From assembly GCA_041659805.1 (NCBI GenBank), contig JBAZXP010000001.1, forward strand, positions 384,589 through 448,588: a DNA stretch of 64,000 nt, given 5' to 3'. Positions 521 through 33,701 of this stretch are shown here, in pieces. The DNA is from Microgenomates group bacterium (GTDB lineage Bacteria > Patescibacteriota > Microgenomatia > Daviesbacterales > UBA10151). Position 1 is the first letter of the stretch. Each line of letters begins with the position of its first letter. The position numbers were made by a program, and so were the translations under genes. A model generated the notes under the pieces. It ran no database searches. It was not told the DNA's origin and saw only the letters and a program-made list of their open reading frames with translations.

Positions 521-2131
521 ATGATACAATCTTTTGATATGAAAACATGGAAAATATTCCCTCAAAAATTTGATGATCCGGTAAAACAATTGCTTTATAA
601 CCGTGGGCTAAAAACAGAAAAAGAAATTGAAGAATTTTTTCATCCAAAATTAGAAGATTTTGAAAAAGAATTAAATATTCCAGGGTTAGAGAAGGCAAAA
701 AAAAGAATTTTGCAGGCAATTAAAAATGAAGAGATAATTGTTGTTTTTGGTGATTACGATGCCGATGGAGTGTGTTCCTTAGCTGTAATGTATTATTCAA
801 TTTCAGAGTTAGGAGGAAAATTTTTGCCCTATATCCCCCATCGTGATAAAGAAGGGTATGGCTTATCAAAAGTAGGGTTGGACTATGCAAAGGAACAGGG
901 AGCGGGACTTGTAATCACTGTTGATAATGGGATTGTGGCGATAGATCAGTCAAAATATGCAAAAGAAATCGGTTTGGATTTAATTATTACTGATCATCAT
1001 TTACCGCTTGATATATTACCTGAAGCACATGCGATAGTCCATTCAACCAAACTTTGTGGAGCAGGTGTAGCTTGGAGTTTAGCAAGGGCTTTGGTTAACA
1101 CAAAAATAAGCAATGATTTATTGGATATAGTGGCGATCGCTACAGTATGCGACATGATGCCCCTAATTGGTGTGAATAGAGCTTTAGTAAGTGAGGGTCT
1201 TAAAAAATTAAATCATACAACTAAGGTTGGGTTAATTGCATTGATGGTTGAAGCTCGTTTAATAAAGGGAGAAATTACTACTTACCACATTGGTCATATC
1301 ATAGGTCCCAGAATTAACGCATTAGGGAGAATAGAGCATGCCATGGATTCCCTTCGCCTGCTTTGTACGAAAGATATTAAAAAAGCCAGAACAATTTCTA
1401 AGCATTTGTCTGATGTTAACGCACAAAAAAAACAGTTAACAGTTGACGCGATATTTGAAGCAAAAGAAATTATCAATCAAATCGAAATAAAGAAAAAAAT
1501 TATTATTGTTCGTTCAGATAAATGGATCCCCGGAATTATGGGACTCGTTGCAGGACGTTTAGTTGAAGAATATGGAATGCCGGCAATTGCTATATCTTGT
1601 GAGAATGGTTTTGCTAAGGGTTCTGCCAGATCAACTAATGAAGTAAATATCGTGGAGGTAATTAGAAAGTGCAGTGATTTATTAATTGGCGTCGGAGGAC
1701 ATCCGAAGGCTGCAGGTTTTTCTCTTGATGTAGAAAAAATTGAGCAGTTCAGGCAAAAAATGGAAAAGTTAATGGAAAGCGCTGAGGTTTTTGAGGGAGA
1801 AACTATTAATATAGAAACAACAATCAAAACAAAACAAATTACCAAAAAACTTGTGGAAGAGCTAGAGAATTTCGAACCAACTGGAGTGGAAAATCCTAAG
1901 CCTATTTTAGCTTCTATGCAAACACCTATTTTTGATATTCGAACAGTGGGAGAAGGGAAACACTTAAAGCTTAAAGTAGATGGATTAGATGCAATAGCTT
2001 TTGGCATGGGGGAGTTGGCAGAACAACTTAAAAATGGGCAGGATGTTAATTTAGCATATAATTTGGAGTTAAATACTTTCAATGGCGCGGAAAAAATTCA
2101 GCTGAAAATTGTAGATATTATTTCGTCTTAA
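521..2131 (+). CDS. recJ: single-stranded-DNA-specific exonuclease RecJ (DHH/DHHA1)
   Basis: 536 aa; VVFGDYDADGVCS, ITDHH (DHH motif), GGHPKAAG (DHHA1) in RecJ order. Confidence 0.8.
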   Translation: MIQSFDMKTWKIFPQKFDDPVKQLLYNRGLKTEKEIEEFFHPKLEDFEKELNIPGLEKAKKRILQAIKNEEIIVVFGDYDADGVCSLAVMYYSISELGGKFLPYIPHRDKEGYGLSKVGLDYAKEQGAGLVITVDNGIVAIDQSKYAKEIGLDLIITDHHLPLDILPEAHAIVHSTKLCGAGVAWSLARALVNTKISNDLLDIVAIATVCDMMPLIGVNRALVSEGLKKLNHTTKVGLIALMVEARLIKGEITTYHIGHIIGPRINALGRIEHAMDSLRLLCTKDIKKARTISKHLSDVNAQKKQLTVDAIFEAKEIINQIEIKKKIIIVRSDKWIPGIMGLVAGRLVEEYGMPAIAISCENGFAKGSARSTNEVNIVEVIRKCSDLLIGVGGHPKAAGFSLDVEKIEQFRQKMEKLMESAEVFEGETINIETTIKTKQITKKLVEELENFEPTGVENPKPILASMQTPIFDIRTVGEGKHLKLKVDGLDAIAFGMGELAEQLKNGQDVNLAYNLELNTFNGAEKIQLKIVDIISS

Positions 2132-2342
2132 AATAACCAATCCCCTCCCAGCCATTTATATCAAATCCAGTTACTCTAAATGTTCTTCCTTCAGGAACTG
2201 ATGCTTGTCCATTACCCATATAACAACCTTCCGGACTAACAGGTACTTTCATTACACCAACTTTATATCCTAATTTTTCTACTTCTTCCCGCGTGCTGAA
2301 TAATTCAGGTGCTGGTTTTGTTCTTTCTTTCACTTTTATCAC
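2118..2342 (-). CDS. small hypothetical protein (71-74 aa), GTG start
   Basis: ORF with AAGGAGGTG Shine-Dalgarno immediately upstream; likely start is the second GTG at 2333 (8 nt spacing). Lies downstream of leader repeat copy 1. No recognisable domain. Confidence 0.4.
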   Translation of the reverse strand: MIKVKERTKPAPELFSTREEVEKLGYKVGVMKVPVSPEGCYMGNGQASVPEGRTFRVTGFDINGWEGIGYFKTK

Positions 2343-2366
2343 CTCCTTTTAGGTAATTTTTTGAAT

Positions 2367-2468
2367 AAAAAAACCTCTCATTTCTGAGAGGCCTCCTTCT
2401 TCCTTAAGCTAATTTTTTTGCTTAAGTAAGACCTCCCATAGGTACTCCAATGAGTACCAAGAGAAGGC
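2367..2468 (-). repeat. ~100 bp structured leader repeat, copy 1 (three hairpins; AUG of a 10-codon uORF MRGFFIQKIT sequestered in hairpin CCUCUCAGAAAUGAGAGG)
   Basis: Near-identical to 3712-3814. Contains inverted repeats ggtactc/gagtacc, cttaagc/gcttaag and cctctca/tgagagg; GGAGG SD precedes the hairpin ATG. uORF stop TAA overlaps the SD of the downstream gene. Confidence 0.7.
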
Positions 2469-2597
2469 TGACGAGAATAATATTTAAAACTGAGATAGAT
2501 TTAATTTCCATTTGAGATATTTTATATCTAAATACTTATGTTTGTCAAAGACAGAATAAATTTGAAAAGCAAATAATTTTAATATATACTACAGGGT

Positions 2598-3014
2598 ATG
2601 CAAGAGACAGCCATAAGTTGTCCTTTTTGTAATATTCTTGAAGGAAAAATTCCAGGTTTTATAGTTGCGGAAAATAACCTTGCTACTTGTATACTTTCCC
2701 TGGAGGGGCATCCTTTAGTAATTCCTAAAAGGCACATCACTGATTATTTAGATCCCAGTTTGGATTCAAAAACGATTCAAGAACTAGCATTACTGGAGGC
2801 TAAGATAGTGCTATTAACTAGTAGGATATATGGTGTCAAAGATATAGCAATGCTTTCACTGAATGGAACCGGTGCCGGTCAGGAAGTGAGTCATTTGCAT
2901 AAACATATTATTCCGGTAATTAGCGGTCCAAGGATTATCAGCATTAGACGTACACCTAATCTGGATAATTCTAAGTTATCTGAAATAGCTGCTAAATTTA
3001 AAGAGATGGTGTAG
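2598..3014 (+). CDS. HIT-family (histidine triad) nucleotide hydrolase
   Basis: 138 aa; N-terminal CPFC zinc motif and HLHKHIIP histidine-triad (HxHxHxx) motif. Confidence 0.75.
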   Translation: MQETAISCPFCNILEGKIPGFIVAENNLATCILSLEGHPLVIPKRHITDYLDPSLDSKTIQELALLEAKIVLLTSRIYGVKDIAMLSLNGTGAGQEVSHLHKHIIPVISGPRIISIRRTPNLDNSKLSEIAAKFKEMV

Positions 3015-3726
3015 CACTTAAATGTTGATGTCGTCTGATTGCTGAACAAGCCCTTCGTGCTGCTGTCTGCAAAAACTTTTGTCTTGAGTATTCAATAGCA
3101 TCATGCTCGATTTTTTGCCAAATCCCGGAAGGATCGTGAAGAGGTCTGGCAAGCGATCCGATGTATGTTAATGCTTCGTTATAATTATTTCTGGTTAATT
3201 TTTCCAGATTTTGAATGTGAACTCCTATATTATTATGTATTCGTTCTCCTCCCTGAGCTCGGTAAGGTCTGATATAATCAAAAAGTTCGTTTCGGGTGTT
3301 TTCTGTAAAATCACCGATTACTGTCAGATCGACGTTGCTGGGATCGTCATGATATTTGTCCCGTGTTAATCCTTTGGCAACTGATCCAAAAAGCAGGACA
3401 GCAAAGTTGTTTAAGTCCAGTCTTTTTGCTTCGTCAACAATATGAGATGTCATTTTCTGTGCTTCTGCATATAAATATTGCCTCCAGTTTAAATCTACAG
3501 AATACATATATTGTCTGCCTGAATTAGGTGTAGGAAAACGTTTTTTCATATGGGGATCATCAACCAGAATCTTCAGTCTCTGACATTCCTCTTCCGGAAG
3601 AGAATTATTTTTTAAAATAGCCGAGGAAATAGCTTTTGTTGATTCACTGGGAAGCAGGACAATAAGTCCTAAAGTATGTGCCCAAAACATTTGTTCGCCT
3701 TTTTCTTTCATAAAAAAACCTCTCAT
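2998..3726 (-). CDS. Pol-beta superfamily nucleotidyltransferase-domain protein (paralog A)
   Basis: 242 aa; LLFGSVAKGLTRDKYHDDPSNVDLTVIGDF matches hG[GS]...D.D NTase motif. Start ATG (MRGFF...) sits inside the leader hairpin, with GGAGG SD 10 nt upstream. Tail-to-tail overlap with the HIT gene. Confidence 0.6.
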   Translation of the reverse strand: MRGFFMKEKGEQMFWAHTLGLIVLLPSESTKAISSAILKNNSLPEEECQRLKILVDDPHMKKRFPTPNSGRQYMYSVDLNWRQYLYAEAQKMTSHIVDEAKRLDLNNFAVLLFGSVAKGLTRDKYHDDPSNVDLTVIGDFTENTRNELFDYIRPYRAQGGERIHNNIGVHIQNLEKLTRNNYNEALTYIGSLARPLHDPSGIWQKIEHDAIEYSRQKFLQTAARRACSAIRRHQHLSATPSL

Positions 3727-3814
3727 TTCTGAGAGGCCTCCTTCTTCCTTAAGCTAATTTTTTTGCTTAAGTAAGACCTCTCATAGGTACTCTAATGAGG
3801 ACCAAAGAGTGGCC
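3712..3814 (-). repeat. ~100 bp structured leader repeat, copy 2 (includes SD and MRGFF start of NTase paralog A)
   Basis: Aligns with 2367-2468 at >90% identity over ~85 bp, then decays. Confidence 0.7.
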
Positions 3815-3970
3815 AATAAATTTAATATTTGTGATAGTTGTATTTAAATAATTCATACCAAAGAGTATTTTAGATCTTTAAGTTTACTCTTGTCAACAAC
3901 AAAAGTGTTTGTTAAAATATTTTTTATGTTCAACAAGCATAGCAACTTTAGATTTTTCTTTACCTTCGCT

Positions 3971-4040
3971 AATTCGCGGAGGTAATTTTGCAACCTTAAG
4001 AAAGCAGCAAAAGAAGCCTCCGGTAAGCGGAGGTTTTTTT
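3971..4040 (+). promoter_or_regulatory. attenuator-like leader: intrinsic terminator hairpin (GCCUCCG-guaag-CGGAGG + U7) with upstream competing CGCGGAGG segment, just 5' of NTase paralog B
   Basis: Stem 4017-4022/4028-4033 followed by ttttttt at 4034-4040, ending 12 nt before the ATG at 4052. cgcggagg at 3975-3982 could pair with cctccg instead. Confidence 0.4.
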
Positions 4041-4051
4041 GTGGAGAAAAT

Positions 4052-4843
4052 ATGAAAACAGAAATAAACAAATACATTATTCATGAACGGTCAGGATTGC
4101 CGATAAGAATTCCGCCGTATCTAAGAAAAGAACTTGCGCACGGCACGGAAATTGGAGAGATACAAAAAGAAATGATTAGAAAAAGTCCGGTTATTGGATG
4201 CAGAGGTGAACAGGATTGTCTGCCGGGTAATTTACTTGAAAATATCCGTTTAAGGAAGATAGCCAAATTGGTATCAAATAGATTGGTGGAAATTGCAGAA
4301 GACAGGCAGATCAGTCGGTATTGTACTGTTGTGCATGGATCACTTGCCAGAGGATTGGTTCGTTGTCCGGAAAGTTCGGATCCCAGCGACATAGACATTG
4401 ATTTAGTAATTGGAGGTAAGAAAGACTGCAGTGATTTGAGGAAACAAGTCCGCGAACAAATGCATGGCTTAAAAGATTCTCTTGGAGCTCGGATTGATAC
4501 TTATGTTTGGAATATTGAAGAAATGAGAAGGAATAAAGGTGACTATGCCAGGTTAAGTTTAAGTGCCGGTGCTTACGTACTTGTGAGTAAAGGAAGCTTA
4601 TGGGAAGAGATTTTCGAGGTAGGCATAGAGAGCCAAAAATTTATTAATTTAGAGAGAAATATCAAAGATCAATTAGCTAAACGCCTTGATCATATTTTAA
4701 TAAAAAATAATATCACTGAAGCATTAACAGATTTTAAAAGCGATAGAATGCAATTAGTCGTGGGTTCTTATTTTAACGGAACATCAGAACCTTGGGAAAT
4801 AAGATTAAAAGCACAAGCTTTAAAAAGACTGATTATGTCTTAA
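4052..4843 (+). CDS. Pol-beta superfamily nucleotidyltransferase-domain protein (paralog B)
   Basis: 263 aa; VVHGSLARGLVRCPESSDPSDIDIDLVIGG (GS...DxD). Same architecture as paralog A: ~100 aa N-extension, NTase core, ~130 aa C-region. Confidence 0.6.
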   Translation: MKTEINKYIIHERSGLPIRIPPYLRKELAHGTEIGEIQKEMIRKSPVIGCRGEQDCLPGNLLENIRLRKIAKLVSNRLVEIAEDRQISRYCTVVHGSLARGLVRCPESSDPSDIDIDLVIGGKKDCSDLRKQVREQMHGLKDSLGARIDTYVWNIEEMRRNKGDYARLSLSAGAYVLVSKGSLWEEIFEVGIESQKFINLERNIKDQLAKRLDHILIKNNITEALTDFKSDRMQLVVGSYFNGTSEPWEIRLKAQALKRLIMS

Positions 4844-5052
4844 ATCAAAAAAACAAAAGGAGGTGATAATTACAGCAGCAGCGTGTAATAAGCTAATTGA
4901 AGCGAAAAAGATGGGTGCCGGCGATAATATTATTAATTCGGCACTGGAAAACTTAGTAAATGTGGTTGCAAACACTAAAGGTAGTGCAGAAGCTCTTAGA
5001 CAACTCCAACCTGATTGATATTGTTAATCTAGCCTCAAACTGATATGATCTA

Positions 5053-6384
5053 TTGGTTATGCAAAGAACATTAATTATTGATTGTAATAAAAACATTGGA
5101 GAAACAGTGGAAATTTGTGGTTGGGTACAAACCAGGCGTGACCATGGGAAAATTGTGTTTTTAGATGTTTTGGATAGATCTGGAGTTATTCAGGTTGTGG
5201 TAATGGGAGATAAAGCAGGTGATTTAAGACCCCAGGATGTAGTTTGTATAGAAGGTAATGTGGCAAAACGCCCAGAACACATGATAAATAAAAATTTATC
5301 AACAGGTGAAATTGAACTTCAGGCAGAAAAAGTTGAAATATTGTCTAAAGCAGAAGAATTACCTTTTGATATGGGAGGTAAAGATTTAGATCTGCAGCTA
5401 CCTACTCTTTTAGATTTTAGAGGTTTAACTTTAAGACATCCAAAAGTTAAAGCAATTTTTAAAGTACAAGAAGCTGTGATAAATGCTTTTAGAGAAGGAC
5501 TTAAAAAACATAATTTTACAGAATTCCAGGCTCCTGTAATTATTCCTCAAACAGCAGAAGGTGGAGCAGAAGTTTTTGAAGTAAATTATTTTGGGAATAA
5601 AGCATTCTTAGCCCAGAGCCCACAATTTTATAAACAAATTTTAGTAGGAGTTTATGAAAGAGTTTTTACTGTAAATAAAACTTTAAGAGCAGAACCATCT
5701 GTTACTACCAGACATTTAGCAGAAGCAACAACGCTTGATGCAGAAATGGGTTTTATAAATAGCTGGGAAGATTTGATGGATGAAATAGAATATTTGATTA
5801 AATATATTTTTAAAAGTGTTGAGCAAGAATGTGCAGATGAATTAAAACTTTATGATGTTTCAGTTCCTCAAATTGAAAATAAAATTCCCCGAATAAAAAT
5901 GAGAGAAGCTCAGGAAATAATTTATAAAAGGACAGGAGTGGATCACAGAAATGAACCAGACCTGGCCCCAGAAGATGAAAGGGAGATTGGAAAATGGGCG
6001 ATTGAAGAGCATAAATCAGAAGTAATTTTTATAACCCATTACCCTACTTCCAAAAGACCTTTTTATACAATGCCAGACAAAGATGATCCAGAACATACTT
6101 TGAGTTTTGATTTAATTGGCAGGGGAGTGGAATGGTTAACTGGTGGACAAAGAATTAATAATTTAGAAACTCTGATAGAAAAAGCCAAAGCAAAAGGGGT
6201 AGATTTACACAAAAGTGAACTTTATATTCAGGCTTTTAAATATGGTATGCCTCCAGAAGGTGGTTGGTCTTTTGGTTCAGAAAGAATTACTCAGGGAATT
6301 CTAGGACTCTCAAATATTCGTGAGGCATCTTTATTTCCAAGAGATATGGAGAGGGTTGATGTCCGATTATCCACTATAAAATGA
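5053..6384 (+). CDS. aspS: aspartyl-tRNA synthetase, archaeal/eukaryotic-type class IIb (AsnRS not fully excluded)
   Basis: 443 aa; N-terminal OB fold, QSPQFYKQ, RAEPSVTTRHLAEATTLDAEMGF motif 2-like, C-terminal GxGxERxxxxxxGxxNIRExxLFPRD. Confidence 0.7.
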   Translation: MVMQRTLIIDCNKNIGETVEICGWVQTRRDHGKIVFLDVLDRSGVIQVVVMGDKAGDLRPQDVVCIEGNVAKRPEHMINKNLSTGEIELQAEKVEILSKAEELPFDMGGKDLDLQLPTLLDFRGLTLRHPKVKAIFKVQEAVINAFREGLKKHNFTEFQAPVIIPQTAEGGAEVFEVNYFGNKAFLAQSPQFYKQILVGVYERVFTVNKTLRAEPSVTTRHLAEATTLDAEMGFINSWEDLMDEIEYLIKYIFKSVEQECADELKLYDVSVPQIENKIPRIKMREAQEIIYKRTGVDHRNEPDLAPEDEREIGKWAIEEHKSEVIFITHYPTSKRPFYTMPDKDDPEHTLSFDLIGRGVEWLTGGQRINNLETLIEKAKAKGVDLHKSELYIQAFKYGMPPEGGWSFGSERITQGILGLSNIREASLFPRDMERVDVRLSTIK

Positions 6385-17384: not shown

Positions 17385-17528
17385 ATGAGTGACTTAAAAG
17401 AAGCAATCAAGCTTAAAGATCCTGAGAAGATAGCAGAAATAATCCTAGCTGGTTTTCAACAGCTTGATGAGGATCTAAAAGAACAAGCAAAGCTTAAGAA
17501 ATCATCAAAGTCAAAAAAGAAAAACTAA
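17385..17528 (+). CDS. small lysine-rich protein (47 aa), divergent from the XRE regulator
   Basis: ATG at 17385, MSDLKEAIKLKDPEK...KSKKKN; below ORF-track cut-off. Confidence 0.3.
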   Translation: MSDLKEAIKLKDPEKIAEIILAGFQQLDEDLKEQAKLKKSSKSKKKN

Positions 17529-19252
17529 AGCTCTATCTCATTCCCAAGAAGATCAGTAATAGTCCTTTTACGTTTTAATTTTCGTGGGTACTTTTCAAAA
17601 AATTCTTTGTTCTCTTCTACTAAATAAATCGTGCAATAACCTGTTCCATCTTCATATTTTAACTCTCTACCTTTCAAAATCCCTTGTCTTTCAAGTTTTC
17701 TAAGTGTGGAAGAATGCAAGCCGCACTCATCAGTTATTTTCCAACCTTGAAGCCAAATATCACTATTCTTTACAGCTTCATAAGGGATATTTCCTTTCTT
17801 TATGTTCATATGGCAATCAAAACAGGTAATCCCATCTAAAGTCCACCATATTTTCTTGCCAGGAGTAGATGATTTACAGATCATACAGGTATATGTTGCA
17901 TCTCCTTCGAGAAGAAATCCCTCTGGTTCATGTTCTAGCCTTTTTTTCCTTGTATTTTCAATTCCTTGCATTTCTCCAGAAAGCCTAACTAACTGAATTA
18001 AATGATAGTTTCCATACTTCATTCTTGCTTCATAGTCTATTTTTGAAGGCTTTTCTTCTTTTTTCTCACCTGTAAGCTCAAAAAAATCTTCCTCTCGTTC
18101 ATATCCTTTCAATCTTCCTGATAAATAACCAAGACGATAGAATACTCCCTCAGTCATCAAACGCCAGTTTGTTCCCTCAAGTCTATCCTTTATAAGTTTT
18201 TGAATCGTGGATACACTAATATTTTCACTGCGTGAAGAATCACTATCTTGAATACTAAAAGGGACAATGACATATTGTCCTATCTCTGGTTTATCAAACG
18301 ACAGCTTAACAAAATGTTCTTTTTCAAGCACCTCATTTAAAAGCTTTTCCAATTCTAAGATAGTAAGTTTTTTCAAACCAGCAACTTTTTGGTAAGCGAA
18401 ACTATCGTATTTTTGTAATTCTTCCTGGTATATTTGCGGGGCAATTTTAAAGGCCTCAATGTACTCAAAACTTTCTTTTCCTTCCTTATCAGAGCAAAAT
18501 TCTTCTCGATATTCCTCCAAAAGCTTTTTATCTTCTTCCTCCTGTTTTTTCCTCTCAGCTCTATGTTTTTCTAAATCATCTTCTGTAGTTTCTGTAAAAC
18601 CACATGATGCACAAGTTGTTTTCCATATAATTTTCTCCTTACTTTCCTTAACAACAGACATATCAATTTCAGCCTTACATTTAGGACATAACTGTGGTTT
18701 TGTTTCATATTCTTTTCCATCTTCATAAATCCATCGTTTCTTTTTACAGTTGGAACAATTAAACAGGAACATCATGTGTAATTGTTTGTCTAATGTATCA
18801 AGGTGTTTAATCGTGACTTTCATTAACTTTTTACAGTCAGGACAGATTATTTCTTGAGGTTCAGGGGTATTATCGTATTTATCTTGTTCTATACTGTCAG
18901 AATCCATCCATTCTTGTATTGCCTCTTCTTTATGACTATATCTTTGGCCTTTTATTTGATAAAGCTCTTGGTTGGTAATCCAACCAAACCATTTTGCCTT
19001 ATCTCCAGCAGAAAACTTTTTAGATTCTTCACTATTCAGGTGTTTTTCATAAGTTTTTGTCCATGACTCAATAGCCTCAAGACATCTTTTAATCGTAAAT
19101 AAGTCATATCGGTCTATATAATGCTGTTTATCTTTAAGGTATTCCATATATCTATCTTTGATTATAATATTCTTCCTCGTTATCTTCATCTGATCCGTCA
19201 AGAAAAGATAAAAATTCATAATCAGAACCGAACTCTTTCCATTTAATTCCAA
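17525..19252 (-). CDS. multi-zinc-ribbon protein with C-terminal MerR/excisionase-like HTH (hypothetical)
   Basis: At least four CxxC...CxxC pairs (CPDC..CSNC, CPKC..CASC, CMIC, CFDC). C-terminal ITDECGLHSSTLRKLERQGILKG HTH. Track start overlaps the upstream XRE gene, so true start is probably MEYLKDK near 19147. Confidence 0.5.
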   Translation of the reverse strand: MELNGKSSVLIMNFYLFLTDQMKITRKNIIIKDRYMEYLKDKQHYIDRYDLFTIKRCLEAIESWTKTYEKHLNSEESKKFSAGDKAKWFGWITNQELYQIKGQRYSHKEEAIQEWMDSDSIEQDKYDNTPEPQEIICPDCKKLMKVTIKHLDTLDKQLHMMFLFNCSNCKKKRWIYEDGKEYETKPQLCPKCKAEIDMSVVKESKEKIIWKTTCASCGFTETTEDDLEKHRAERKKQEEEDKKLLEEYREEFCSDKEGKESFEYIEAFKIAPQIYQEELQKYDSFAYQKVAGLKKLTILELEKLLNEVLEKEHFVKLSFDKPEIGQYVIVPFSIQDSDSSRSENISVSTIQKLIKDRLEGTNWRLMTEGVFYRLGYLSGRLKGYEREEDFFELTGEKKEEKPSKIDYEARMKYGNYHLIQLVRLSGEMQGIENTRKKRLEHEPEGFLLEGDATYTCMICKSSTPGKKIWWTLDGITCFDCHMNIKKGNIPYEAVKNSDIWLQGWKITDECGLHSSTLRKLERQGILKGRELKYEDGTGYCTIYLVEENKEFFEKYPRKLKRKRTITDLLGNEIEL

Positions 19253-19454
19253 GCGACTTTCTAATTTTATCTAATGTACGCATACCAATGCTACCAGTTT
19301 TTCCACGCTCGATTTTACCGTAATAATTGGGATTTAAATCAGCTCCTACAGCAACATCTACCCTTGTTCTCTTCTGTTCTAATCTTATTTGTATTATTCT
19401 TTGGCATAATAATTTTTGCCTTTTGAGTCCCTGTTCAGAAATTCTATGTTTCAT
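19152..19454 (-). CDS. XRE-family HTH transcriptional regulator
   Basis: 100 aa; RIIQIRLEQKRTRVDVAVGADLNPNYYGKIERGKTGSIGMRTLDKIRKSLGI. Confidence 0.65.
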   Translation of the reverse strand: MKHRISEQGLKRQKLLCQRIIQIRLEQKRTRVDVAVGADLNPNYYGKIERGKTGSIGMRTLDKIRKSLGIKWKEFGSDYEFLSFLDGSDEDNEEEYYNQR

Positions 19455-19510
19455 GAAGGGAATTATAAAAGAGTTTTCTAAAAAATGACGTACTTTTATG
19501 AATAGTTACT

Positions 19511-22045
19511 TTGGCTATCTTAAATATAGGAACTTTGCTAGAATTGAACCAGAATATGTCAAAAATACCATTTAGTGTATCAGCTAGAACCGCAAGATTA
19601 ATAGGAAGGGAAAATGTCAGTAATGCAGAAGGTGCAATAATTGAATTAGTTAAGAACGCTTATGATGCTGATGCAAGTACATGTATAGTTTTTTTTAAAA
19701 AGGATTTTAGCGGAATTCCTGAGCAACTATCTATACAAGAATATACTCAAATCTCTACAAAGCAAACTTTTAAGGAAATAAAAGATTGCTACGAAAAAAA
19801 TAATGAGGGATACCAACTTAAAACCCTAATTGGCGATAAAACAGAGGTTTTATCTTCTTTTTTTAATTCGTTGTGTGAAATTTATATCATAGACAATGGG
19901 ACGGGTATGACACGAAATGTGCTTGAAAATCAATGGATGATGATAGGAACAGACAATAAATTGGAGAACTATATATCAAAAAAGAAACGTATACAAACAG
20001 GAGCCAAGGGAATTGGAAGGTTTGCGCTCGATAGGCTTGGATCTTTTTGCGAGGTGCTTACTAAATCTGAAGATTCTTCAGAAGGGTATAAATGGGCTGT
20101 AAATTGGGAGAATTTTGAAAAGAAAAACACAGATATAGGTAAGATTTATGCGGAATTAGAAGTGGTTCAAAAATTTAGTAGCGACTCTTTGTCATTTTTC
20201 AAAAAAACAGAGAATGAAGTAATTATGCCTTTATTGGGAAAATTTGAGCATGGAACCATATTGAGAATTAAATCATTGAGCGATACATGGAATTCTGAAA
20301 GCATCACTAATATTTATCATGTTTTAGAATCATTAACTCCCCCTGGAACATTTCAGGAATTTAAAATGTTTGTTTTTAATTCTGAAGATTTAAATGCTTT
20401 TGGAGAAGTTAAAAACTTTATTAATGATGATTTTGATTACCAAGTTAATGCAACTTTTAATTCTGAAAAACAACTTAATATAAAGATCTCAAGACGTGAG
20501 TTTGATTACAAAAAAATTGATAAAAAGCTTTTCTTACAAAAAGAAATGCAAAAATCTCCTTATACCGAAGAGGATTTTAAAAAAGGCTATTTTTTAATAA
20601 AAATGGATATCCATAAATTATTACCTGGGGGACTAAACGAATATATACTTAATAATTTAGGGCCTTTTGAATTTAATTTCTACTTCATTAAGCGTCAAAC
20701 TACTAACGAAGATAGGGAGGTTTTTTCTTTTAGAGATTTCAACCAAGCGCGAAGAGCAGAATGGTTAGATAGATCAAGTGGAATTAAAATTTTTCGAGAC
20801 AATTTTAGAATTAGGCCCTACGGAGAGCCAAAAGGATCAACATATGATTGGTTGGGATTAGACATGCGGGCTGCTAAAAGCCCTGCTGGATTTGCTCAAA
20901 GAATTGGGCAATGGCATGTTAGATCATACCAAGTGGCCGGTGAAGTTAATATTTCTAGGATAACTAATATCTATTTTGATGATAAATCTAGTAGAGAAGG
21001 TTTACAAGAAAATGCCTACTTTAAAGTATTCAAAAATATTTTAAATGAAATAGTTGCACTTTTTGAAAGAGATCGAGAATACATAGGAATAAACATGAAA
21101 AGTTTTTCCAAGAAAAATAATGAAGAAGAAAAAACCAAAGAGGAAGCTCATGAAATTGCAGAAATGATAACCTCAACGCCCTCATCTCCACAACAGTCAT
21201 TGGATATTGATCCACAAAGTCTAAAGCAACAACTAGAAACTGTTTCTAAAGGATTTAAAATTAAGGAAAAAGAGCAAGAAGAATTATTGACTGAAGCAAA
21301 AATGCTTCGTACGTTAGCTAGTTCAGGTTTATTAGTAGCTACATTTGCTCATGAATTAAGACAGTTAGGAGGAACCTTATCCCGAAGAGTAGATTTACTC
21401 GAGCAATGCCTAGAAGGTGTTATAGATAAGAGTAAATTAGCTTCATTGCCAACCCATTTAGATCCATATAAAAGATTGCAAAGATTAAGAGATGATGACT
21501 TGAAACTTAAGAATTGGATAGACTTATCAGTAAACACATTACAAAGAAATAAAAGGGATCTAATTAAGATAAATCTAACTAAATATTTATCTGAATATAT
21601 CGAATATGTAAATAACATAGTAAAATTCAAAGAAGCACATATAGAATTTAAAAGTACATCTGATGACATAGAAATAAAAGTTTTTCCAATAGATATGGAC
21701 AGTATATTTAATAATTTGCTTGCAAATTCAATTGCAGGATTTCTTCGTAAAGATGCACCTAATGAAAGAAAAATTAGTATAAATATATCGGCTACAACTA
21801 ATAACGTTATCATCGAATATCTCGATAGCGGCCCAGGTTTAGATTCTTCAATTCCTTACCCAGAAAAAATTTATGATTTGTTTTTTACTACTAAAATAAA
21901 TGAGGTAGGAGAAAAAATAGGTACAGGTTTAGGTATGTGGATAGTAAAATCTATTATTGAAGAGTATGAAGGTAGTATAAATATAACAAAAGTACGCCCT
22001 GGATTCGGTATTAAAATGGAAATCCCTAAACATATAAGCAAATAG
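19511..22045 (+). CDS. GHKL-ATPase / sensor histidine kinase fusion protein (N-terminal MORC/HATPase_c_3-like ATPase + C-terminal HisKA H-box and HATPase_c)
   Basis: 844 aa. N-terminal Bergerat motifs ELVKNAYDADAS (N-box), IIDNGTGM (G1), GAKGIGRFALDRLG (G2). C-terminal ATFAHELRQ (H-box), FNNLLANSIAG (N), YLDSGPGLD (G1), GTGLGMWIVKS (G2). TTG start at 19511; alternative ATG at 19556. Confidence 0.7.
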   Translation: MAILNIGTLLELNQNMSKIPFSVSARTARLIGRENVSNAEGAIIELVKNAYDADASTCIVFFKKDFSGIPEQLSIQEYTQISTKQTFKEIKDCYEKNNEGYQLKTLIGDKTEVLSSFFNSLCEIYIIDNGTGMTRNVLENQWMMIGTDNKLENYISKKKRIQTGAKGIGRFALDRLGSFCEVLTKSEDSSEGYKWAVNWENFEKKNTDIGKIYAELEVVQKFSSDSLSFFKKTENEVIMPLLGKFEHGTILRIKSLSDTWNSESITNIYHVLESLTPPGTFQEFKMFVFNSEDLNAFGEVKNFINDDFDYQVNATFNSEKQLNIKISRREFDYKKIDKKLFLQKEMQKSPYTEEDFKKGYFLIKMDIHKLLPGGLNEYILNNLGPFEFNFYFIKRQTTNEDREVFSFRDFNQARRAEWLDRSSGIKIFRDNFRIRPYGEPKGSTYDWLGLDMRAAKSPAGFAQRIGQWHVRSYQVAGEVNISRITNIYFDDKSSREGLQENAYFKVFKNILNEIVALFERDREYIGINMKSFSKKNNEEEKTKEEAHEIAEMITSTPSSPQQSLDIDPQSLKQQLETVSKGFKIKEKEQEELLTEAKMLRTLASSGLLVATFAHELRQLGGTLSRRVDLLEQCLEGVIDKSKLASLPTHLDPYKRLQRLRDDDLKLKNWIDLSVNTLQRNKRDLIKINLTKYLSEYIEYVNNIVKFKEAHIEFKSTSDDIEIKVFPIDMDSIFNNLLANSIAGFLRKDAPNERKISINISATTNNVIIEYLDSGPGLDSSIPYPEKIYDLFFTTKINEVGEKIGTGLGMWIVKSIIEEYEGSINITKVRPGFGIKMEIPKHISK

Positions 22046-22047
22046 AT

Positions 22048-22683
22048 ATGAGTAATTATAATATTGCCTTTATAGATGACGATCAGGGTGTTATAGACGA
22101 TTTCCTTGTTACTGCTGGGAATAAATCGGTAGATGTTCAAACCTTTGAATTATCTCCTGATAAAGAAAGTTTGGTTGATGAAATCGCAAAATCTAATGTT
22201 GATGCGATAGTCATTGATTTTCATCTTGCCGATACTCGACCAAATATCAAATATGATGGCGCAGAGGTAATGAATCAATTGGAAGAGGTGACTTACAATA
22301 TCCCAAAGTTTATTTTTACTGCTTTTTCGTCTGCAGCTGAAGATAAAAGTAATGATATTAATATAGTTTATGAAAAAGAAGGAGATTTTGGGCCATTTAT
22401 TGATAAAGTAATAAAACAAATCGATAAATACAAACATCGATTGGAAGAGTATCAAGAGGAATTGATGAGTTTAATAGAGAAGAGTAAAACTACCAAATTA
22501 AATGTAGAAGAGGAAGAGCGCGCTTTAGAATTAGATAATATTATCGAGAAGTCTTTGAACAAAAGACTTTCCTTACCTGATAGCCTCAAAAAACCTTCAA
22601 CTATTTCAACGCTCGACAAACTTCTTTCAGAGGCAGAACAAATAGTAAAGGAGTTACAAAATCGTAACAATGCAAAATCTTAG
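22048..22683 (+). CDS. stand-alone response-regulator receiver (REC) domain protein with C-terminal coiled-coil
   Basis: 211 aa; acidic pair FIDDDQ, phospho-acceptor-like Asp in AIVIDFHLAD, T in FIFTAFS, conserved K near 109. Start 3 nt after upstream stop. Confidence 0.6.
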   Translation: MSNYNIAFIDDDQGVIDDFLVTAGNKSVDVQTFELSPDKESLVDEIAKSNVDAIVIDFHLADTRPNIKYDGAEVMNQLEEVTYNIPKFIFTAFSSAAEDKSNDINIVYEKEGDFGPFIDKVIKQIDKYKHRLEEYQEELMSLIEKSKTTKLNVEEEERALELDNIIEKSLNKRLSLPDSLKKPSTISTLDKLLSEAEQIVKELQNRNNAKS

Positions 22684-23260
22684 ATCTAAAATACCACAAC
22701 GAACTTGCACGAGAGAATACACAGATTACACTTCCTATAAAAGCTACTTAAAATCTGATTTTGACAGTAGGTGTGGTTATTGTGATGACCATGATCAATA
22801 TTATGGTGGTTCTGACTCATATCATATTGATCATTTCGCACCTAAAAAATTTGCGGATTTAATCTCTAAGTACAGCAATCTTGTATATTCGTGCCCATTT
22901 TGTAACAAGGCTAAGCGCAATAAATGGCCTTCAGATGATCAGAATGTGAATGTTGTAGGTGATGAAGGATTTATTGACCCCTGTAGTGAGAACTATGATA
23001 TTCATTTGAACCGTGATGAAAATGGTAGCATAATCTCTGTTACCCCAATTGGTGGTTATATGCATAAGCATTTAGAATTAAATTTGAATAGACATGCCAT
23101 AATCTGGAAATTAGATAGAATTAATGAAGCAATAACTAAAATTCAAGTACTGAGAGATAGCGATTCAGAACTAGGTGAAGATTTATCAAATAGACTAAAC
23201 CAACTATTGGCAGACTATAGAGAATATGACCAAAGATTAAAAGACACATATAACAAGTAA
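22670..23260 (+). CDS. HNH endonuclease
   Basis: 196 aa; CGYCDD...HIDHFAPKK...NLVYSCPFCNKAK = CxxC-HxxH-N-CxxCN beta-beta-alpha-Me motif. 14 nt overlap with REC gene; C-terminal helical tail. Confidence 0.75.
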   Translation: MQNLRSKIPQRTCTREYTDYTSYKSYLKSDFDSRCGYCDDHDQYYGGSDSYHIDHFAPKKFADLISKYSNLVYSCPFCNKAKRNKWPSDDQNVNVVGDEGFIDPCSENYDIHLNRDENGSIISVTPIGGYMHKHLELNLNRHAIIWKLDRINEAITKIQVLRDSDSELGEDLSNRLNQLLADYREYDQRLKDTYNK

Positions 23261-23383
23261 TATTTTCAAGTAAAAAGACTGCAGACTTTGTAGGAAAATT
23301 ATAGTATGATTAAAAAGTGCTGCCTAGTTTTATATTAAAAACCTGATTAATTAAAAGGGGTAAATGAGACTGCAGAGTTATTA

Positions 23384-24667
23384 ATGAAAAAAAATACTAC
23401 TCTTCTCAAAAAGGGTTGGGATGATAAAGTAGGATACTTTCCTACACCAGCTAATATTGTAGCGCAGTTTACTTGTCTTACTACTGATTTTATAAAACCA
23501 TATTTGCCTTCCCAAATTGATGTGTTAGATTTATTTGCTGGAGATGGAAGATTAGGCATAGAACTATCAAAATCTCTATACAATAATAACTATAAACCTC
23601 ATACAACTTTTGTTGAGATTCAGCAGGAAGAGATAGAGAAAATCAAAGCTAATACTAAAAATACTAAGGTTTTTAAACGCAATATATTTAAATGGTCAAC
23701 AAAAAAGAGGTTTGATTTAGTAATTTCTAATCCCCCATATTTAATACTAAATTCGCCTGATGCAGGAAAGCTTGGATTCAATTGGGAATATGCTAAAAAA
23801 CATGGAAGAAATTTATATACATTAGGAATTATCAAAGCTTTAGCTTTATGTAGAGAAGGAGGAATTGTCGCCGTAATCTCTCCATTTAGTTGGTTAAGAG
23901 GAGAATACAGTAAAGAATTTAGAGAGATAATAAATCAAAATTGTTCAAGAGTATTAATAAAGGCAAACGATCATAGAACAGTATTTAAAGGTGTTAATCA
24001 AGATATTGGTTTCCAATTTTTTATTAAAAGATACAGACATGAGACATCACTAACAAAATGGCAATTTGGGTATAATGGTAATAATCCTGAAGAGATTCTT
24101 TTTGAGAACTTAGAAAGAAAGAATAGCTATTATCAATTAAGCTCTAGAGTAATGGTTGGTACTATCGTATGGAATAGAAATAAAGAATATCTTACTTCAC
24201 AAAAACATAATAGTACCCTAGTAGTTTATGGTGGTAATATAGGCCATGATGGAAAACTTAATTGTAATATTTCAAAATATAAAGATAAACAATATATTCA
24301 AAACAAAGTTTTATCAAAAACAGATGTATTTGAATCTCCTCTAATATTAATACGGAGAATTATGAGAGGAATACCAGGCAACTGGATGATTGATTCCTGC
24401 TTAATCGAAAAACCCTTTAAGTGTGTTGTTGAAAATCATGTGATTGTTATTGAAATACCAAAGGGGAAAGTAGCCTCGTATAGAAGATTTTATGAAAACA
24501 TAATGGATAGAATAAAAGAATATTATTATTTCTCTGGAAGCCCATCAATAAGCGGAAGGGTTGTAAAACAAATAATAATGGATCTAGAGCTTTCTTTGAT
24601 TAAAGAAAAGGATGCGTCAAATTATCTTCCAACCAGTCAAGAAAACATACATCTATTATTTGATTAA
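23384..24667 (+). CDS. N6-adenine DNA methyltransferase (gamma-class, FxGxG...NPPY)
   Basis: 427 aa; GYFPTPANIV (motif X), DLFAGDGRLG (motif I), DLVISNPPY (motif IV); C-terminal ~200 aa putative TRD. Confidence 0.75.
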   Translation: MKKNTTLLKKGWDDKVGYFPTPANIVAQFTCLTTDFIKPYLPSQIDVLDLFAGDGRLGIELSKSLYNNNYKPHTTFVEIQQEEIEKIKANTKNTKVFKRNIFKWSTKKRFDLVISNPPYLILNSPDAGKLGFNWEYAKKHGRNLYTLGIIKALALCREGGIVAVISPFSWLRGEYSKEFREIINQNCSRVLIKANDHRTVFKGVNQDIGFQFFIKRYRHETSLTKWQFGYNGNNPEEILFENLERKNSYYQLSSRVMVGTIVWNRNKEYLTSQKHNSTLVVYGGNIGHDGKLNCNISKYKDKQYIQNKVLSKTDVFESPLILIRRIMRGIPGNWMIDSCLIEKPFKCVVENHVIVIEIPKGKVASYRRFYENIMDRIKEYYYFSGSPSISGRVVKQIIMDLELSLIKEKDASNYLPTSQENIHLLFD

Positions 24668-25240
24668 TAACTCACCCTTCTTCGACAGGTCGCTATTTGC
24701 AAATATTTTTAAATAGTCAAAGTTTTTTAGTTCATTATTCAATTCCTTAAGGGAAATGCTTCTTTCAGTTCCTAACATTTCCCATATCATCATGATTGTT
24801 TGTTCCCAATCATTACCAAGTTGACCAAGAATAAATCGTAGTACAAACTCTGATATTTCTTCAGCTGTACCTTCAAAGCTAATTTTTCTTTCTCCTAATT
24901 GATCAATAAAGTTAGACACAATTCTATCCTCTTCATAAGTAACCCAATCTGGTGTATCTTTACCAATATTTGTAGGAGGATATTTATCATTTAATACCGA
25001 AGTATCGATAGTTGAATTAAGCTTAATTTGTTCTATAGTATCTTCAAGAAGTTTTCTCCAGTCATGAAGTGCTTTTTGAGATCTAATCATAGTAGTTAAA
25101 AATTGATTTCTATCCCCTGATGTTCCAATTATTTTGGGATAATTTTTTGTCTTAGCTATTTCTTTTATTAACGCAAAAGTATCTTTATCCCATTGATCAA
25201 AAAGAGGATATCGATATTTAGGAGGGTTATTTATAGCCAT
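24656..25240 (-). CDS. hypothetical protein (last gene of 4-gene minus-strand operon)
   Basis: 194 aa, no motif recognised. Confidence 0.4.
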   Translation of the reverse strand: MAINNPPKYRYPLFDQWDKDTFALIKEIAKTKNYPKIIGTSGDRNQFLTTMIRSQKALHDWRKLLEDTIEQIKLNSTIDTSVLNDKYPPTNIGKDTPDWVTYEEDRIVSNFIDQLGERKISFEGTAEEISEFVLRFILGQLGNDWEQTIMMIWEMLGTERSISLKELNNELKNFDYLKIFANSDLSKKGELLIK

Positions 25241-25243
25241 AGT

Positions 25244-26011
25244 TTATTTAATAATTAAATCTCTAATAAAATTAACAAACTCAGCTGTTTTAGAGTAGGT
25301 TTCTTTACCGTCAATCTTTTTATTTTCTCTATTTTTATACCATTCTAAAGCTTCTTTAATTAAGGATGACCATTGAGGAAGTTGTTCTATAGTCCACTGA
25401 GCAGCTTGTTTTTTAGACACTTGTTCACCATTTTTGACCGCATAGTATGCTCTACATAGAGTAAGAATCGCATAGCCCTGGGCTCCTTTAGTATGCATAT
25501 CTTTTACCCATTCACTCCAAGAGGAAGTATGTGACTTTACTGCTTCAATAAATTCTTCTTTTGAGATTGGTTCAATTATTATTTTTGGATCAGCACCAAA
25601 TAGCGTTACACCATTTTCTCGAACTATGTACCAATTCATTAACCAATGCTTTCCAACTACTCTTTTATGAAATGGTTCACCTGGACTAATGACAGCAATT
25701 TCACTCTCTTCTGTTTTGAAGGTTTTTAGAGCAGATTTTGGCATATACTGAACTTCGATTCTGTCGTTCCATTCTGTATGTTCATTTGCAAAATCTTGAT
25801 GCATTTTTTCTAAAGCCTTAAATTCTTCATCTGTTAAATCAGATTCCAAAGCAGCTACTAAATCTATATCACTAATATTCTGATCAAAATCACCAGTAAC
25901 AAGAGAACCATATAGGTATAAACCAATTAGCTTTCCTCCTAAAACACTTTGAATTTTAGAAAGAATAATCTGGAGTAAATTATTAATATCCGGATATTGT
26001 GTAGGACTCAT
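25244..26011 (-). CDS. nucleotidyltransferase, AadA/ANT(3'')-like (Pol-beta NTase + C-terminal helical domain)
   Basis: 255 aa; LIGLYLYGSLVTGDFDQNISDIDLVAAL strongly resembles the aminoglycoside adenylyltransferase GS...SDIDL core. Confidence 0.6.
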   Translation of the reverse strand: MSPTQYPDINNLLQIILSKIQSVLGGKLIGLYLYGSLVTGDFDQNISDIDLVAALESDLTDEEFKALEKMHQDFANEHTEWNDRIEVQYMPKSALKTFKTEESEIAVISPGEPFHKRVVGKHWLMNWYIVRENGVTLFGADPKIIIEPISKEEFIEAVKSHTSSWSEWVKDMHTKGAQGYAILTLCRAYYAVKNGEQVSKKQAAQWTIEQLPQWSSLIKEALEWYKNRENKKIDGKETYSKTAEFVNFIRDLIIK

Positions 26012-26595: not shown

Positions 26596-26619
26596 ATTTT
26601 TAGTATAGCAGAGGAGACA

Positions 26620-27132: not shown

Positions 27133-27364
27133 ATTTATTTTCCTTCTGAAAGTCGCTATTTTTAATATTTTATTCCTCTCTCTGTAAAATTTCTTTTCTC
27201 ATATAAAGGGGTTGCACCCCTCATTTTGCAAGGGTATATAAACGAGGTCGTTGCCTCGCCCTTGCAAAACTCACCCCGCTTAGCTTGCAGCATGTATCGG
27301 TAGCAGGCAGGCTGCTACCAGAAAAAATATTTTCTAGGAAAGGCCAGGAAGGAGGTGAAAATAT

Positions 27365-27772: not shown

Positions 27773-27779
27773 TTCAATA

Positions 27780-27817
27780 AACCTACCGTTTGTTGAAAAA
27801 CAGGCGGTAGGTTTTAC
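27780..27817. terminator. bidirectional intrinsic terminator between convergent genes
   Basis: ACCTACCGtttgttgaaaaacaggCGGTAGGTTTT; T-run on plus, A-run (T-run on minus) on the other side. Confidence 0.6.
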
Positions 27818-33675: not shown

Positions 33676-33701
33676 CATTTTAAGGTTGGAGATTAAAGTT
33701 T

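Follow-up and report, generated by a model that had tools for sequence, protein, structure and literature searches.

The 64-kb window studied here, by which we mean the whole stretch of DNA that was analysed, belongs to a 1.13-Mb contig (JBAZXP010000001.1) of a metagenome-assembled genome (MAG) of the Microgenomates group, within the Candidate Phyla Radiation (CPR). Near its beginning, between recJ and aspS, lie two nucleotidyltransferase (NTase) genes, referred to as NTase A and NTase B (the NCBI hypothetical proteins WCV81_01075 and WCV81_01080), a gene for a HIT hydrolase and a 74-aa open reading frame (ORF). NTases A and B represent two clades of a single family, designated A-type and B-type. 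Three units (NTase B, NTase A and the 74-aa ORF) are built alike, with a promoter, a short leader ORF, alternative 1:2, 2:3 and 3:4 hairpins and a U-run next to the start codon of the gene. Attenuation very likely operates in these leaders, and we regard as probable, with some reserve, the wider reading in which an MNT-like NTase family, linked to the supply of aminoacyl-tRNA, is induced through hungry-codon attenuators. The three units comprise the following features.

2519-2548, minus strand: promoter of leader 1, sigma-70-like TTGACA-18-TAAAAT, 11/12 matches; the leader ATG lies about 8 nt past the -10 box
2422-2511, minus strand: leader ORF 1, 29 codons, MEIKSISVLNIILVSLLLVLIGVPMGGLT then stop; region 1 at about 2461-2468, region 2 at about 2429-2439
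2367-2393, minus strand: predicted leader 1 terminator (3:4), GGCCUCUCA-GAAA-UGAGAGG followed by U7
2118-2342, minus strand: 74-aa ORF, the third gene behind a leader, with a strong Shine-Dalgarno (SD) sequence, AAGGAGGTGA, and a GTG start
3867-3896, minus strand: promoter of the NTase A leader, TTGACA-18-TAAAAT, its -35 box back to back with that of NTase B (TTGTCAACAA)
3767-3856, minus strand: leader ORF 2, 29 codons, MNYLNTTITNIKFIGHSLVLIRVPMRGLT then stop; region 1 at about 3806-3814, region 2 at about 3774-3784
3712-3738, minus strand: predicted leader 2 terminator (3:4), with U7 directly next to the start codon of NTase A and a 3' arm (GAGAGG) that can double as SD
2998-3711, minus strand: NTase A (A-type), 237 aa, FGS...DDPSNVDLTVIGD ... 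NIGVHIQ, with Asn126 and Gly163 in place of two of the three canonical carboxylates
3890-3918, plus strand: promoter of the NTase B leader from the promoter scan, TTGTCA-17-(TG)TAAAAT
3926-3985, plus strand: Phe leader ORF of NTase B, 19 codons of which 6 are Phe, MFNKHSNFRFFFTFANSRR then stop; region 1 at 3962-3969 (ACCUUCGC), region 2 at 3975-3982 (CGCGGAGG)
4017-4040, plus strand: predicted NTase B terminator (3:4), CCUCCG-GUAAG-CGGAGG followed by U7, 11 nt upstream of the NTase B ATG
4052-4843, plus strand: NTase B (B-type), 263 aa, HGS...DPSDIDIDLVIG ... RIDTYVW, three carboxylates kept

NTase B was found as first described from the sequence (the original prediction). For NTase A the gene was borne out, although its proposed ORF (2998-3726, minus strand) began 15 nt too far upstream. 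We place the start at the ATG at 3711, because the NCBI model and all homologs start there and because the first five codons of the longer ORF (MRGFF) belong to the terminator, of which they form the 3' arm and the U-run.

In each leader the start of the ORF is followed by a 1:2 hairpin, a middle hairpin and a GC-rich 3:4 hairpin with U7, and region 2 is nearly a copy of region 4. The three leader promoters are themselves the best sigma-70 matches of the region. A 104-nt direct repeat (2357-2460 and 3702-3805, 94% identical) corresponds, on the minus strand, to the 3' part of the two equivalent leaders of the 74-aa ORF and NTase A. The original prediction had described a terminator hairpin before NTase B at 4016-4040, whose 5' half could pair instead with 3975-3982. 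Both elements were recovered, the hairpin at 4017-4040 (CCTCCG-GTAAG-CGGAGG and T7) and the 2:3 pairing as a duplex of -12.6 kcal/mol that beats 300 dinucleotide shuffles (z=-4.95, p=0.003); the equivalent duplex of the NTase A leader reaches -15.3 kcal/mol (z -3.47). The terminator/antiterminator layout proposed for NTase B thus stands, but it is not special to this gene and belongs to a leader-peptide attenuator found throughout the family.

The behaviour of the leaders was studied by constrained folding. When region 1 was masked and the transcript stopped in the loop of the terminator, the 2:3 helix closed around the middle hairpin, at -18.0 kcal/mol for NTase B and -21.8 kcal/mol for NTase A; in the absence of a ribosome, or with one placed on the stop codon, the 3:4 hairpin formed. 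The stop codon of the Phe-rich leader ORF lies directly after region 2. We infer that each of the three cassettes is under a ribosome-dependent transcription attenuator. Transcription would begin a few bases upstream of the short ORF, and a ribosome reaching the leader stop would cover region 2 and let the 3:4 hairpin and its U-run form, leading to termination; the same hairpin would hide the downstream SD. A ribosome stalled about 5-9 codons earlier on hungry codons would instead cover region 1, so that the 2:3 antiterminator encloses the middle hairpin and the gene is expressed.

The start codons at 2598 (HIT) and at 2511, 3856 and 3926 (leader ORFs) lie about 8 nt past predicted -10 boxes and have no SD, which suggests that HIT and all three leader peptides are translated leaderless. 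The regulated genes, unlike the leader ORFs, have strong SDs or can use the 3' arm of the terminator as one. The -35 palindrome TTGTCAACAA at 3890-3896 was also found in two related loci, L001 (about 5838-5848) and L040 (about 503-512); such overlapping back-to-back hexamers could allow promoter competition or a common regulator.

To compare the leaders within the family, genomic contexts were gathered by exact-protein look-ups and by scans of species genomes and metagenomes, and annotated with phmmer and hmmsearch; two outgroup MNT-like genes (L038 and L039) were excluded from all counts. The attenuator design lies upstream of almost every member examined, with a hairpin and U-run abutting the start codon. 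The stems vary between loci (CCUCCG, CCUCCC, CUCGCC, CCCGCC, CCUCUC, CCGCCU), and regions 2 and 4 always change together. When 15 independent leaders were set against 300 dinucleotide shuffles each, the 2:3 duplex came out ahead at p<0.05 in 11 and at exactly p=0.05 in a twelfth (median z -2.95). Counted from where region 2 begins, the leader stop codon falls between -8 and +19 nt in 14 of the 15, the exception being L019 (+39). Leader ORF frame and length are kept across loci that are 28-71% identical, with indels in multiples of three, as seen for leader ORF 1 in L001, L018 and L040. RNAalifold applied to five leaders of the 29-codon type returned P1, P2 and the terminator with five compensated pairs, and ORF indels again in multiples of three. 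A covariance model of this type (R1) scored 131 bits for L040 and 115 bits for L018, both of which are training sequences and match by construction; independent matches reached at most 48 bits.

A scan of the 64 kb with Rfam at gathering thresholds gave a single match, to one tRNA. In E-value mode the only further matches, all below threshold, were to the Rfam Phe_leader model (RF01859), for all three leaders, and to BTnc231; the latter was discarded as generic, since it reflects three hairpins with a terminator. A riboswitch was also set aside, as the stems covary freely, no conserved ligand-pocket sequence is seen and a conserved ORF is present, and so was a role of the 29-aa peptide as a small membrane protein or SecM/MifM-type sensor, since it is too short to leave the ribosome and nothing supports it.

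Amino acids probably sensed by the leaders

B-type leaders contain 25% Phe, compared with 4.9% in the proteins of the window (p=7e-15), and that of NTase B has 6 Phe in 19 codons including an FFF run. Searches for pheL have been based on a short ORF with at least five Phe codons, at least two of them adjacent, within 60 nt (PMC3082878), a description that the ORF at 3926-3985 fits. By these searches pheL was reported almost only in Gammaproteobacteria (PMC3082878).

Further leaders were found in the collected loci with the covariance model of the 29-codon type and then read individually. In L013 a Phe-rich leader (MKQCGNLFFSFFFTFA then stop; L013:7348-7499, plus strand) precedes a prephenate dehydratase gene with an ACT domain (L013:7502-8632; Pfam PDT, 5e-36), and in L005 the leader MKQYNNLVIFGFFFTFA (then stop) precedes an unknown gene and an aminotransferase. 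The leaders of the window, L013 and L005 have in common the nucleotide core GGATTTTTCTTTACCTTCGC...CGCGGAGG...GCCTCCG...CGGAGGT7GTGGAGAAAATATG. On this alignment the NTase B leader is homologous, at the nucleotide level, to leaders of prephenate dehydratase elsewhere. Three contigs encoding two distinct B-type proteins (L042 and L043 for one arrangement, L044 for the other) have the order thrS-infC-rpmI-rplT, leader (MKQYSNIAIFKFFFTFA or MLRPTKTFRFFGYFTFA, each then stop), B-type NTase, a 90-aa ORF, pheS and pheT. In E. coli the rplT-pheS interval houses the pheM attenuator. Elsewhere a B-type gene precedes a class I Trp/Tyr-type synthetase gene (L003, L036) or aspS (window, L001).

The window leader may accordingly be compared with the pheL-pheA and pheM-pheST leaders of Enterobacteria (PMC3082878; Rfam RF01859). 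Both have a short ORF with at least five Phe codons including an adjacent run, a 1:2 pause hairpin, a 2:3 antiterminator and a 3:4 terminator with U-run, and homologous leaders of relatives precede prephenate dehydratase (L013) or sit in the rplT-pheS interval (L042, L044). They differ in that the window leader controls NTase B, followed by aspS, and not pheA or pheST; it scores 30.3 bits against RF01859, whose gathering score is 55, and so stays outside the curated model; its host is a CPR bacterium and not a gammaproteobacterium; its ORF lies about 8 nt from the -10 box and is probably leaderless; and the 3' arm of its terminator doubles as the SD region of the downstream gene. The C-terminus of the E. 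coli pheL peptide is FFFTFP, which the core FFFTF(A) of the window peptide matches. It is therefore likely, although less so than attenuation as such, that the NTase B leader is specific for Phe, in which case its FRFFFTF codons would form a pheL/pheM-type sensor of Phe-tRNA(Phe).

For the A-type and 29-codon leaders the composition points elsewhere: Leu makes up 18% versus 9.7% (p=2e-5), and Leu, Ile and Val together 37% versus 24.5%. The 29-codon, Leu/Ile/Val-rich leaders of NTase A and the 74-aa ORF probably sense branched-chain aminoacyl-tRNA supply, with less certainty than Phe in the case of NTase B, and the other A-type leaders may do so.

Leaders were also seen before other kinds of genes. 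In L006, the leader MKRYYIMSQTPITS (2582-2715) is followed by a HAD (SerB-like) phosphatase gene (2736-3377), and in L013 a leader with an Ile run (MRLQRILTNSIIITSPLGGVIA; 5863-5991) by a gene for a 100-aa unknown protein. These cases suggest a wider, undescribed repertoire of attenuators in Microgenomates.

The NTase family and its HIT partner

The original prediction took NTases A and B as paralogs with a Pol-beta core, for which motifs alone allowed no family assignment. BLASTP supports the paralogy (25% identity over 134 aa, E=2e-10), and a single profile, used in an exhaustive search of 1.84 billion entries, recovers both clades and little else, with 88 cluster representatives; a word-indexed search had returned only 9 and 15 relatives of NTase A and NTase B. 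The G, S, D, S, D and W positions are invariant across the family, around a GS...DPS[ND]IDL core, and the G and S of the hG[GS] motif (G109/S110 in A, G96/S97 in B) are invariant in the 24 members aligned. The C-terminal region, announced as about 130 aa in both proteins, is in fact shorter, at about 70 aa in NTase A and about 110 aa in NTase B. No domain fusion was seen in the ten longest members.

Relatives with informative source names come from Microgenomates, Daviesbacteria, Levybacteria and Patescibacteria, and three MAGs are labelled Gammaproteobacteria by their depositors. The family is CPR-dominated. The three MAGs (L014, L015 and L019, titled 'uncultured Gammaproteobacteria bacterium', one of them a 0.94-Mb contig) carry CPR-type NTase-HIT modules and attenuators, and their label looks doubtful.

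Alignment of about 100 members to the family profile separated two kinds of active site. B-type proteins have the motifs HGS...DPSD[IV]DIDL and R[IV]D[ST]Y[VA]W and keep all three canonical carboxylates. In A-type proteins, which are the majority and include NTase A, the motifs are FGS...DPSN[IV]DLAVIGD and GN[AV]GV[HF][IV]Q, and in most members the first catalytic Asp is Asn and the third is Gly. The [DE]h[DE]h carboxylate pair on strand 2 therefore reads SDIDIDL in the B-type and SN[IV]DL in the A-type, while G163 of NTase A falls on a predicted strand (162-168) aligned with the third Asp in the AlphaFold (AF2) model. As two of three carboxylates are replaced, A-type proteins are unlikely to be canonical two-metal NTases; with its triad intact, NTase B is probably an active enzyme (a nucleoside monophosphate transferase) of a Phe-limitation regulon.

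Neither NTase matched a family above threshold in Pfam, NCBIfam or PADLOC. The Pfam models Polbeta and NTP_transf_2 match weakly in 16/24 and 12/24 members, mostly below the gathering score, and a sequence-profile search of the PDB gave only the minimal NTase 2rff (E=1.1). For CD-NTase/CBASS and the other catalogued defence NTases the best PADLOC E values were 0.002-0.02, to candidate models only, and the antibiotic ANT/Lnu families gave no NCBIfam or Pfam match. Nor did the NTases fall into a housekeeping family with unrelated contexts among relatives. Homology to RelA/SpoT-type synthetases was dropped, there being no profile signal.

The AF2 models of NTases A and B are of high quality (pLDDT 92.5 and 92.1, pTM 0.86 and 0.85). 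The Foldseek neighbours of NTase B are the MntA antitoxin (7bxo/7aer, probability 1.0, TM on target 0.56-0.60; the best neighbours, with E not below 1e-3), then Hailong HalB, Tam41, AAD(9) and ANT(4'); for NTase A the best are 2rff, Cid1 and CdnE. The models suggest for the core an MNT-like Pol-beta fold, flanked on the N- and C-terminal sides by parts peculiar to the family. In common with MntA, AadA/ANT(3'')(9) and ANT(4'), B-type proteins have the GS-x(n)-SD[IV]D[IL] signature and a third Asp on the next strand. The family differs from them by an extra conserved N-terminal part of about 60-100 aa (a beta-hairpin, GLPIRIPP, and helices), an unrelated C-terminal helical region, a 4-5 residue insertion with an invariant DPS, the absence of a HEPN partner, and, in the A-type clade, Asn and Gly at two metal ligands.

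The HIT gene lies between the 74-aa ORF and NTase A.

2562-2590, plus strand: promoter-like site of HIT, TTGAAA-17-TATACT, 10/12 matches
2598-3014, plus strand: HIT gene, 138 aa, with CPFC and HLHKHII motifs

Its product matches Pfam HIT (PF01230) with E=6e-10 and 40 bits, for a cut-off of 21.5, and contains the HxHxHxx histidine triad (HLHKHII) and an N-terminal CxxC (CPFC). Among the 18 HIT proteins compared (window and partners), the triad is kept in all and CxxC in 16 by script; that of L008 also has CxxC by eye. The nearest solved relatives are generic HIT/Hint proteins (E=1.9e-12), with weak matches to Ap4A phosphorylase, and by these matches the subtype is only generically Hint-like. 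The HxHxHxx and CxxC motifs are those of Hint-branch hydrolases (AMP-phosphoramidase or acyl-adenylate hydrolase, and distantly Ap4A phosphorylase), from which the protein differs by its conserved tail-to-tail, often overlapping pairing with a specific NTase-like gene. Since the ATG sits 8 nt downstream of the -10 box, the HIT mRNA is probably leaderless. A terminator-like hairpin followed by CTTTTTGT was noticed at 2606-2622 (plus strand), within the first HIT codons (ETAISCPFC); it is possibly due to chance and possibly regulatory.

As had been proposed, HIT is convergent with NTase A, and their 3' ends overlap tail-to-tail by 17 nt. Such an arrangement of an A-type gene with a HIT gene was found in 17/20 distinct loci (the window, L005, L006, L008, L009, L012, L013, L014, L015, L016, L018, L019, L020, L026, L027, L031 and L033), with a stop-to-stop distance of -48 to +16 nt; in L014 and L015 two tandem A-type genes precede the HIT gene. 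B-type genes had a HIT neighbour in 0/7 distinct contexts (window, L001, L003, L035, L036, L042/43 and L044). The association suggested between NTase and HIT is thus non-random for the A-type and does not extend to the B-type. In the same way, the idea of a writer/eraser pair, an NTase making a product that HIT removes, keeps its conserved gene pairing but meets a doubtful 'writer': the Asn/Gly substitutions weaken that role precisely in the clade linked to HIT. No description of the NTase-HIT pair, or of attenuators in CPR, was found in the literature searched.

Alternative explanations and possible function

A link of the NTases to aminoacyl-tRNA and starvation physiology seems to us rather probable, a little less so than the attenuator reading of the family given above. 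B-type genes would be co-expressed with pheST or other aminoacyl-tRNA synthetase genes, or occupy their slot. NTase A probably binds a nucleotide or a nucleotide conjugate, or else acts as a non-canonical enzyme, and would work with HIT. With its own promoter and no leader, HIT would be expressed constitutively, and the convergent overlap suggests reciprocal expression with NTase A. Candidate roles for the NTases are the nucleotidylation of tRNA or of a synthetase, or the making or binding of an adenylylated small molecule cleaved by HIT. A coupling of this make-or-bind/break kind between A-type NTase and HIT is conceivable, though we hold it doubtful.

Several observations weigh against this reading. 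Termination at the leaders rests throughout on prediction and comparative evidence. The synthetase downstream in the window and L001 is AspRS and not PheRS, and the adjacency of NTase and synthetase genes is a plain count, made in CPR genomes that are rich in translation genes. Some B-type leaders have Trp or Tyr in place of Phe (FYFWFTS, FWFFYF), which fits a nascent-chain or aromatic signal as well as strict Phe sensing. The Leu/Ile/Val enrichment of the A-type leaders is modest and could in part follow from the pyrimidines that dominate region 1, and several of these leaders (MKFVCRNFADLINA, MSRKFAYIRTLSSF) have no obvious codon run. Three of the 20 A-type loci (L025, L028, L029) lack HIT. 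Finally, no Foldseek match in the PDB had E<1e-3 for either NTase model, the best being 4.6e-3 for B and 0.08 for A, and neither the structural nor the sequence matches point to a substrate.

These leaders might instead be drug-sensing attenuators of the erm/vga/cat type, in which an antibiotic-stalled ribosome induces an ANT/Lnu-like NTase B or, elsewhere, a methyltransferase. The design of ermC is a 1:2/2:3/3:4 layout with the SD in segment 4. The leaders described here have the same layout, and with ermC and ermK they have in common the four-segment logic, the SD of the regulated gene in segment 4, the short leader ORF and the possibility of both transcriptional and translational components; the stall signal is here, however, most simply codon hunger, given the Phe run and a leader common to pheA and pheS. 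Although the Foldseek neighbours of NTase B include AAD(9) (6xxq, E=0.017) and ANT(4')-IIb (E=0.06), TM-scores to ANT structures are about 0.25 and the NTases have no match in the ANT/Lnu models of NCBIfam or Pfam. The aromatic, not strictly Phe, conservation of some B-type leaders could be a nascent-chain effect, and the 29-codon-type leader of L040 does drive a Methyltransf_11 gene; against this, the Phe leader also precedes pheA-like and pheS genes of relatives, two catalytic residues are missing in the A-type, and drug modification would give the HIT partner no role. We consider this explanation unlikely.

The original prediction also raised a minimal toxin-antitoxin pair, which may be put as a defence-related writer/eraser system: the NTase would nucleotidylate tRNA, protein or DNA as a toxin and HIT would remove the modification, following the logic of MenT, HEPN-MNT or DarT-DarG. 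The conserved two-gene pairing, the MNT-like core and the variable cassette content of the recJ-aspS island are compatible with it, but the genes are convergent with separate promoters and form no autoregulated operon, and the clade linked to HIT is the one with the degraded active site. HIT matches the PADLOC ThsC HIT model (E=7e-12), although as a generic HIT match; the NTases match PADLOC models at noise level only, and neither HEPN nor another toxin partner was found in Pfam or PADLOC. In the HEPN-MNT (type VII) system the genes form a co-directional operon, unlike the convergent HIT and attenuator-controlled small ORFs found here. Expression under amino-acid attenuators, the conserved housekeeping synteny of the genes and the position of B-type genes inside the rplT-pheST operon add to this poor fit, and such a role is in our opinion quite improbable.

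A peptide-nucleotide pathway resembling microcin C would make the short ORF a precursor, the terminator a means of tuning the peptide/enzyme ratio, the NTase the enzyme nucleotidylating the peptide and HIT an MccH-like immunity protein. The order of short ORF, terminator and NTase does recall mccA-mccB, where a short ORF and a hairpin terminator precede a nucleotidyl-transfer enzyme; HIT phosphoramidases can detoxify aminoacyl-adenylate analogues, and a synthetase gene (AspRS) is adjacent. But a conserved terminal Asn is never seen in the leader peptides, whose last residue is T, I, R, A, S or W, genes for pheA, pheS, a methyltransferase and a HAD phosphatase stand behind the same leaders, export, peptidase and MccB-like genes were not found nearby, and attenuation, not precursor function, accounts for the conserved 2:3 pairing, so that very little speaks for this pathway. 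Chance, with ordinary or accidental hairpins, spurious short ORFs and unregulated NTase neighbours, is equally far-fetched and already contradicted by the comparative data: short ORFs and U-runs are common in AT-rich genomes and whole-region promoter and terminator scans are only modestly above shuffles (16 versus 10.9; 4 versus 2.3), yet the hairpins stand between divergent genes, where no gene lies upstream whose transcript they could end, the ORFs keep frame and length across divergent loci, covariation of regions 2 and 4 is seen in 15 or more independent leaders, and covariance-model matches are strong, if only for the training sequences L040 and L018.

The reading in which amino-acid attenuators control the NTases can be extended. 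The NTase family, with HIT as a degrading or proofreading partner of the A-type, might be the output arm of a transcriptionally wired CPR starvation response, attenuators for different amino acids switching on paralogous NTases that either produce a signalling nucleotide (Ap4A-like, or a different alarmone) or modify the cognate synthetase or tRNA by nucleotidylation. We think this rather unlikely; if true, it would be a functional analogue of the stringent response in which attenuators, an MNT-like enzyme and a HIT hydrolase take the place of RelA/SpoT. CPR/Patescibacteria represent a large share of bacterial diversity and have minimal genomes, and their gene regulation and starvation response are hardly known. 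Classical leader-peptide attenuation, including a pheL/pheM-like Phe sensor, would be used in a modular manner in Microgenomates, where the controlled genes are mostly uncharacterised and comprise an NTase family that has no entry in Pfam or NCBIfam, the HIT partner of this family and a number of small proteins. Attenuators and the NTase and HIT folds are of known kinds. Their combination is new to the curated libraries and the literature searched, with CPR attenuators that would drive an unclassified NTase family, an active-site-altered clade tail-to-tail with HIT, and a B clade in the pheST slot. The leaders could provide a ready set of cis-regulatory elements for defining starvation regulons of uncultured bacteria by sequence alone.

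The recJ-aspS interval and other features of the window

The interval is bounded by two housekeeping genes, and a further small ORF precedes the second of them.

521-2131, plus strand: recJ, from the ORF list and Pfam
4863-5018, plus strand: possible 51-aa ORF of uncertain status between NTase B and aspS, with a strong SD (AAAAGGAGGTGATAA)
5053-6384, plus strand: aspS, downstream of the 51-aa ORF

The content of the interval differs among relatives. In L001 (5190-6010), a syntenic Daviesbacteria locus, the divergent promoter pair is likewise found between recJ and aspS, HIT and NTase A are absent, and two small ORFs, of 70 and 76 aa, stand behind the 29-codon leader. In L040 (1-700), a 29-codon-type leader drives the Methyltransf_11 gene, followed by a homolog of the 74-aa ORF, and a Phe leader drives an 85-aa ORF. 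From these comparisons the interval is best described as a small island whose cassette content varies among related genomes, and the leaders behave as portable switches set before differing genes. Since L001 and L040 carry other genes behind the same leader types, the layout of the window looks like the insertion of a HIT and NTase A cassette, together with a duplication that copied the leader's 3' part. The 104-nt duplication brackets this insert, and the duplicated leaders may therefore serve as recombination handles.

The small ORFs of the collected loci are themselves little conserved. Three homologs of the 74-aa ORF were found (100, 80 and 47% identity), and it had no match in Pfam, NCBIfam or PADLOC. 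L001 has no counterpart of the 51-aa ORF, which showed no similarity when compared with the 76-aa ORF of that locus. The co-regulated small ORFs (74, 51, 70, 76, 83, 90, 72 and 125 aa) had no Pfam match.

Elsewhere in the window, a different NTase-like ORF (25244-26011, minus strand; N-terminus ...LIGLYLYGSLVTGDFDQN) resembles ANT/AadA by eye and is unrelated to NTases A and B; it adjoins two P-loop kinase-like ORFs (26008-26595 and 26620-27132, both on the minus strand). Large unannotated ORFs (959, 844 and 575 aa, among others) occupy about 17500-33700, and at the end of this block the only tRNA gene found in the window (33567-33637, minus strand) is adjacent to, or overlapped by, an ORF resembling serine recombinases (32059-33675). 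The block may be an integrated element or a defence island.

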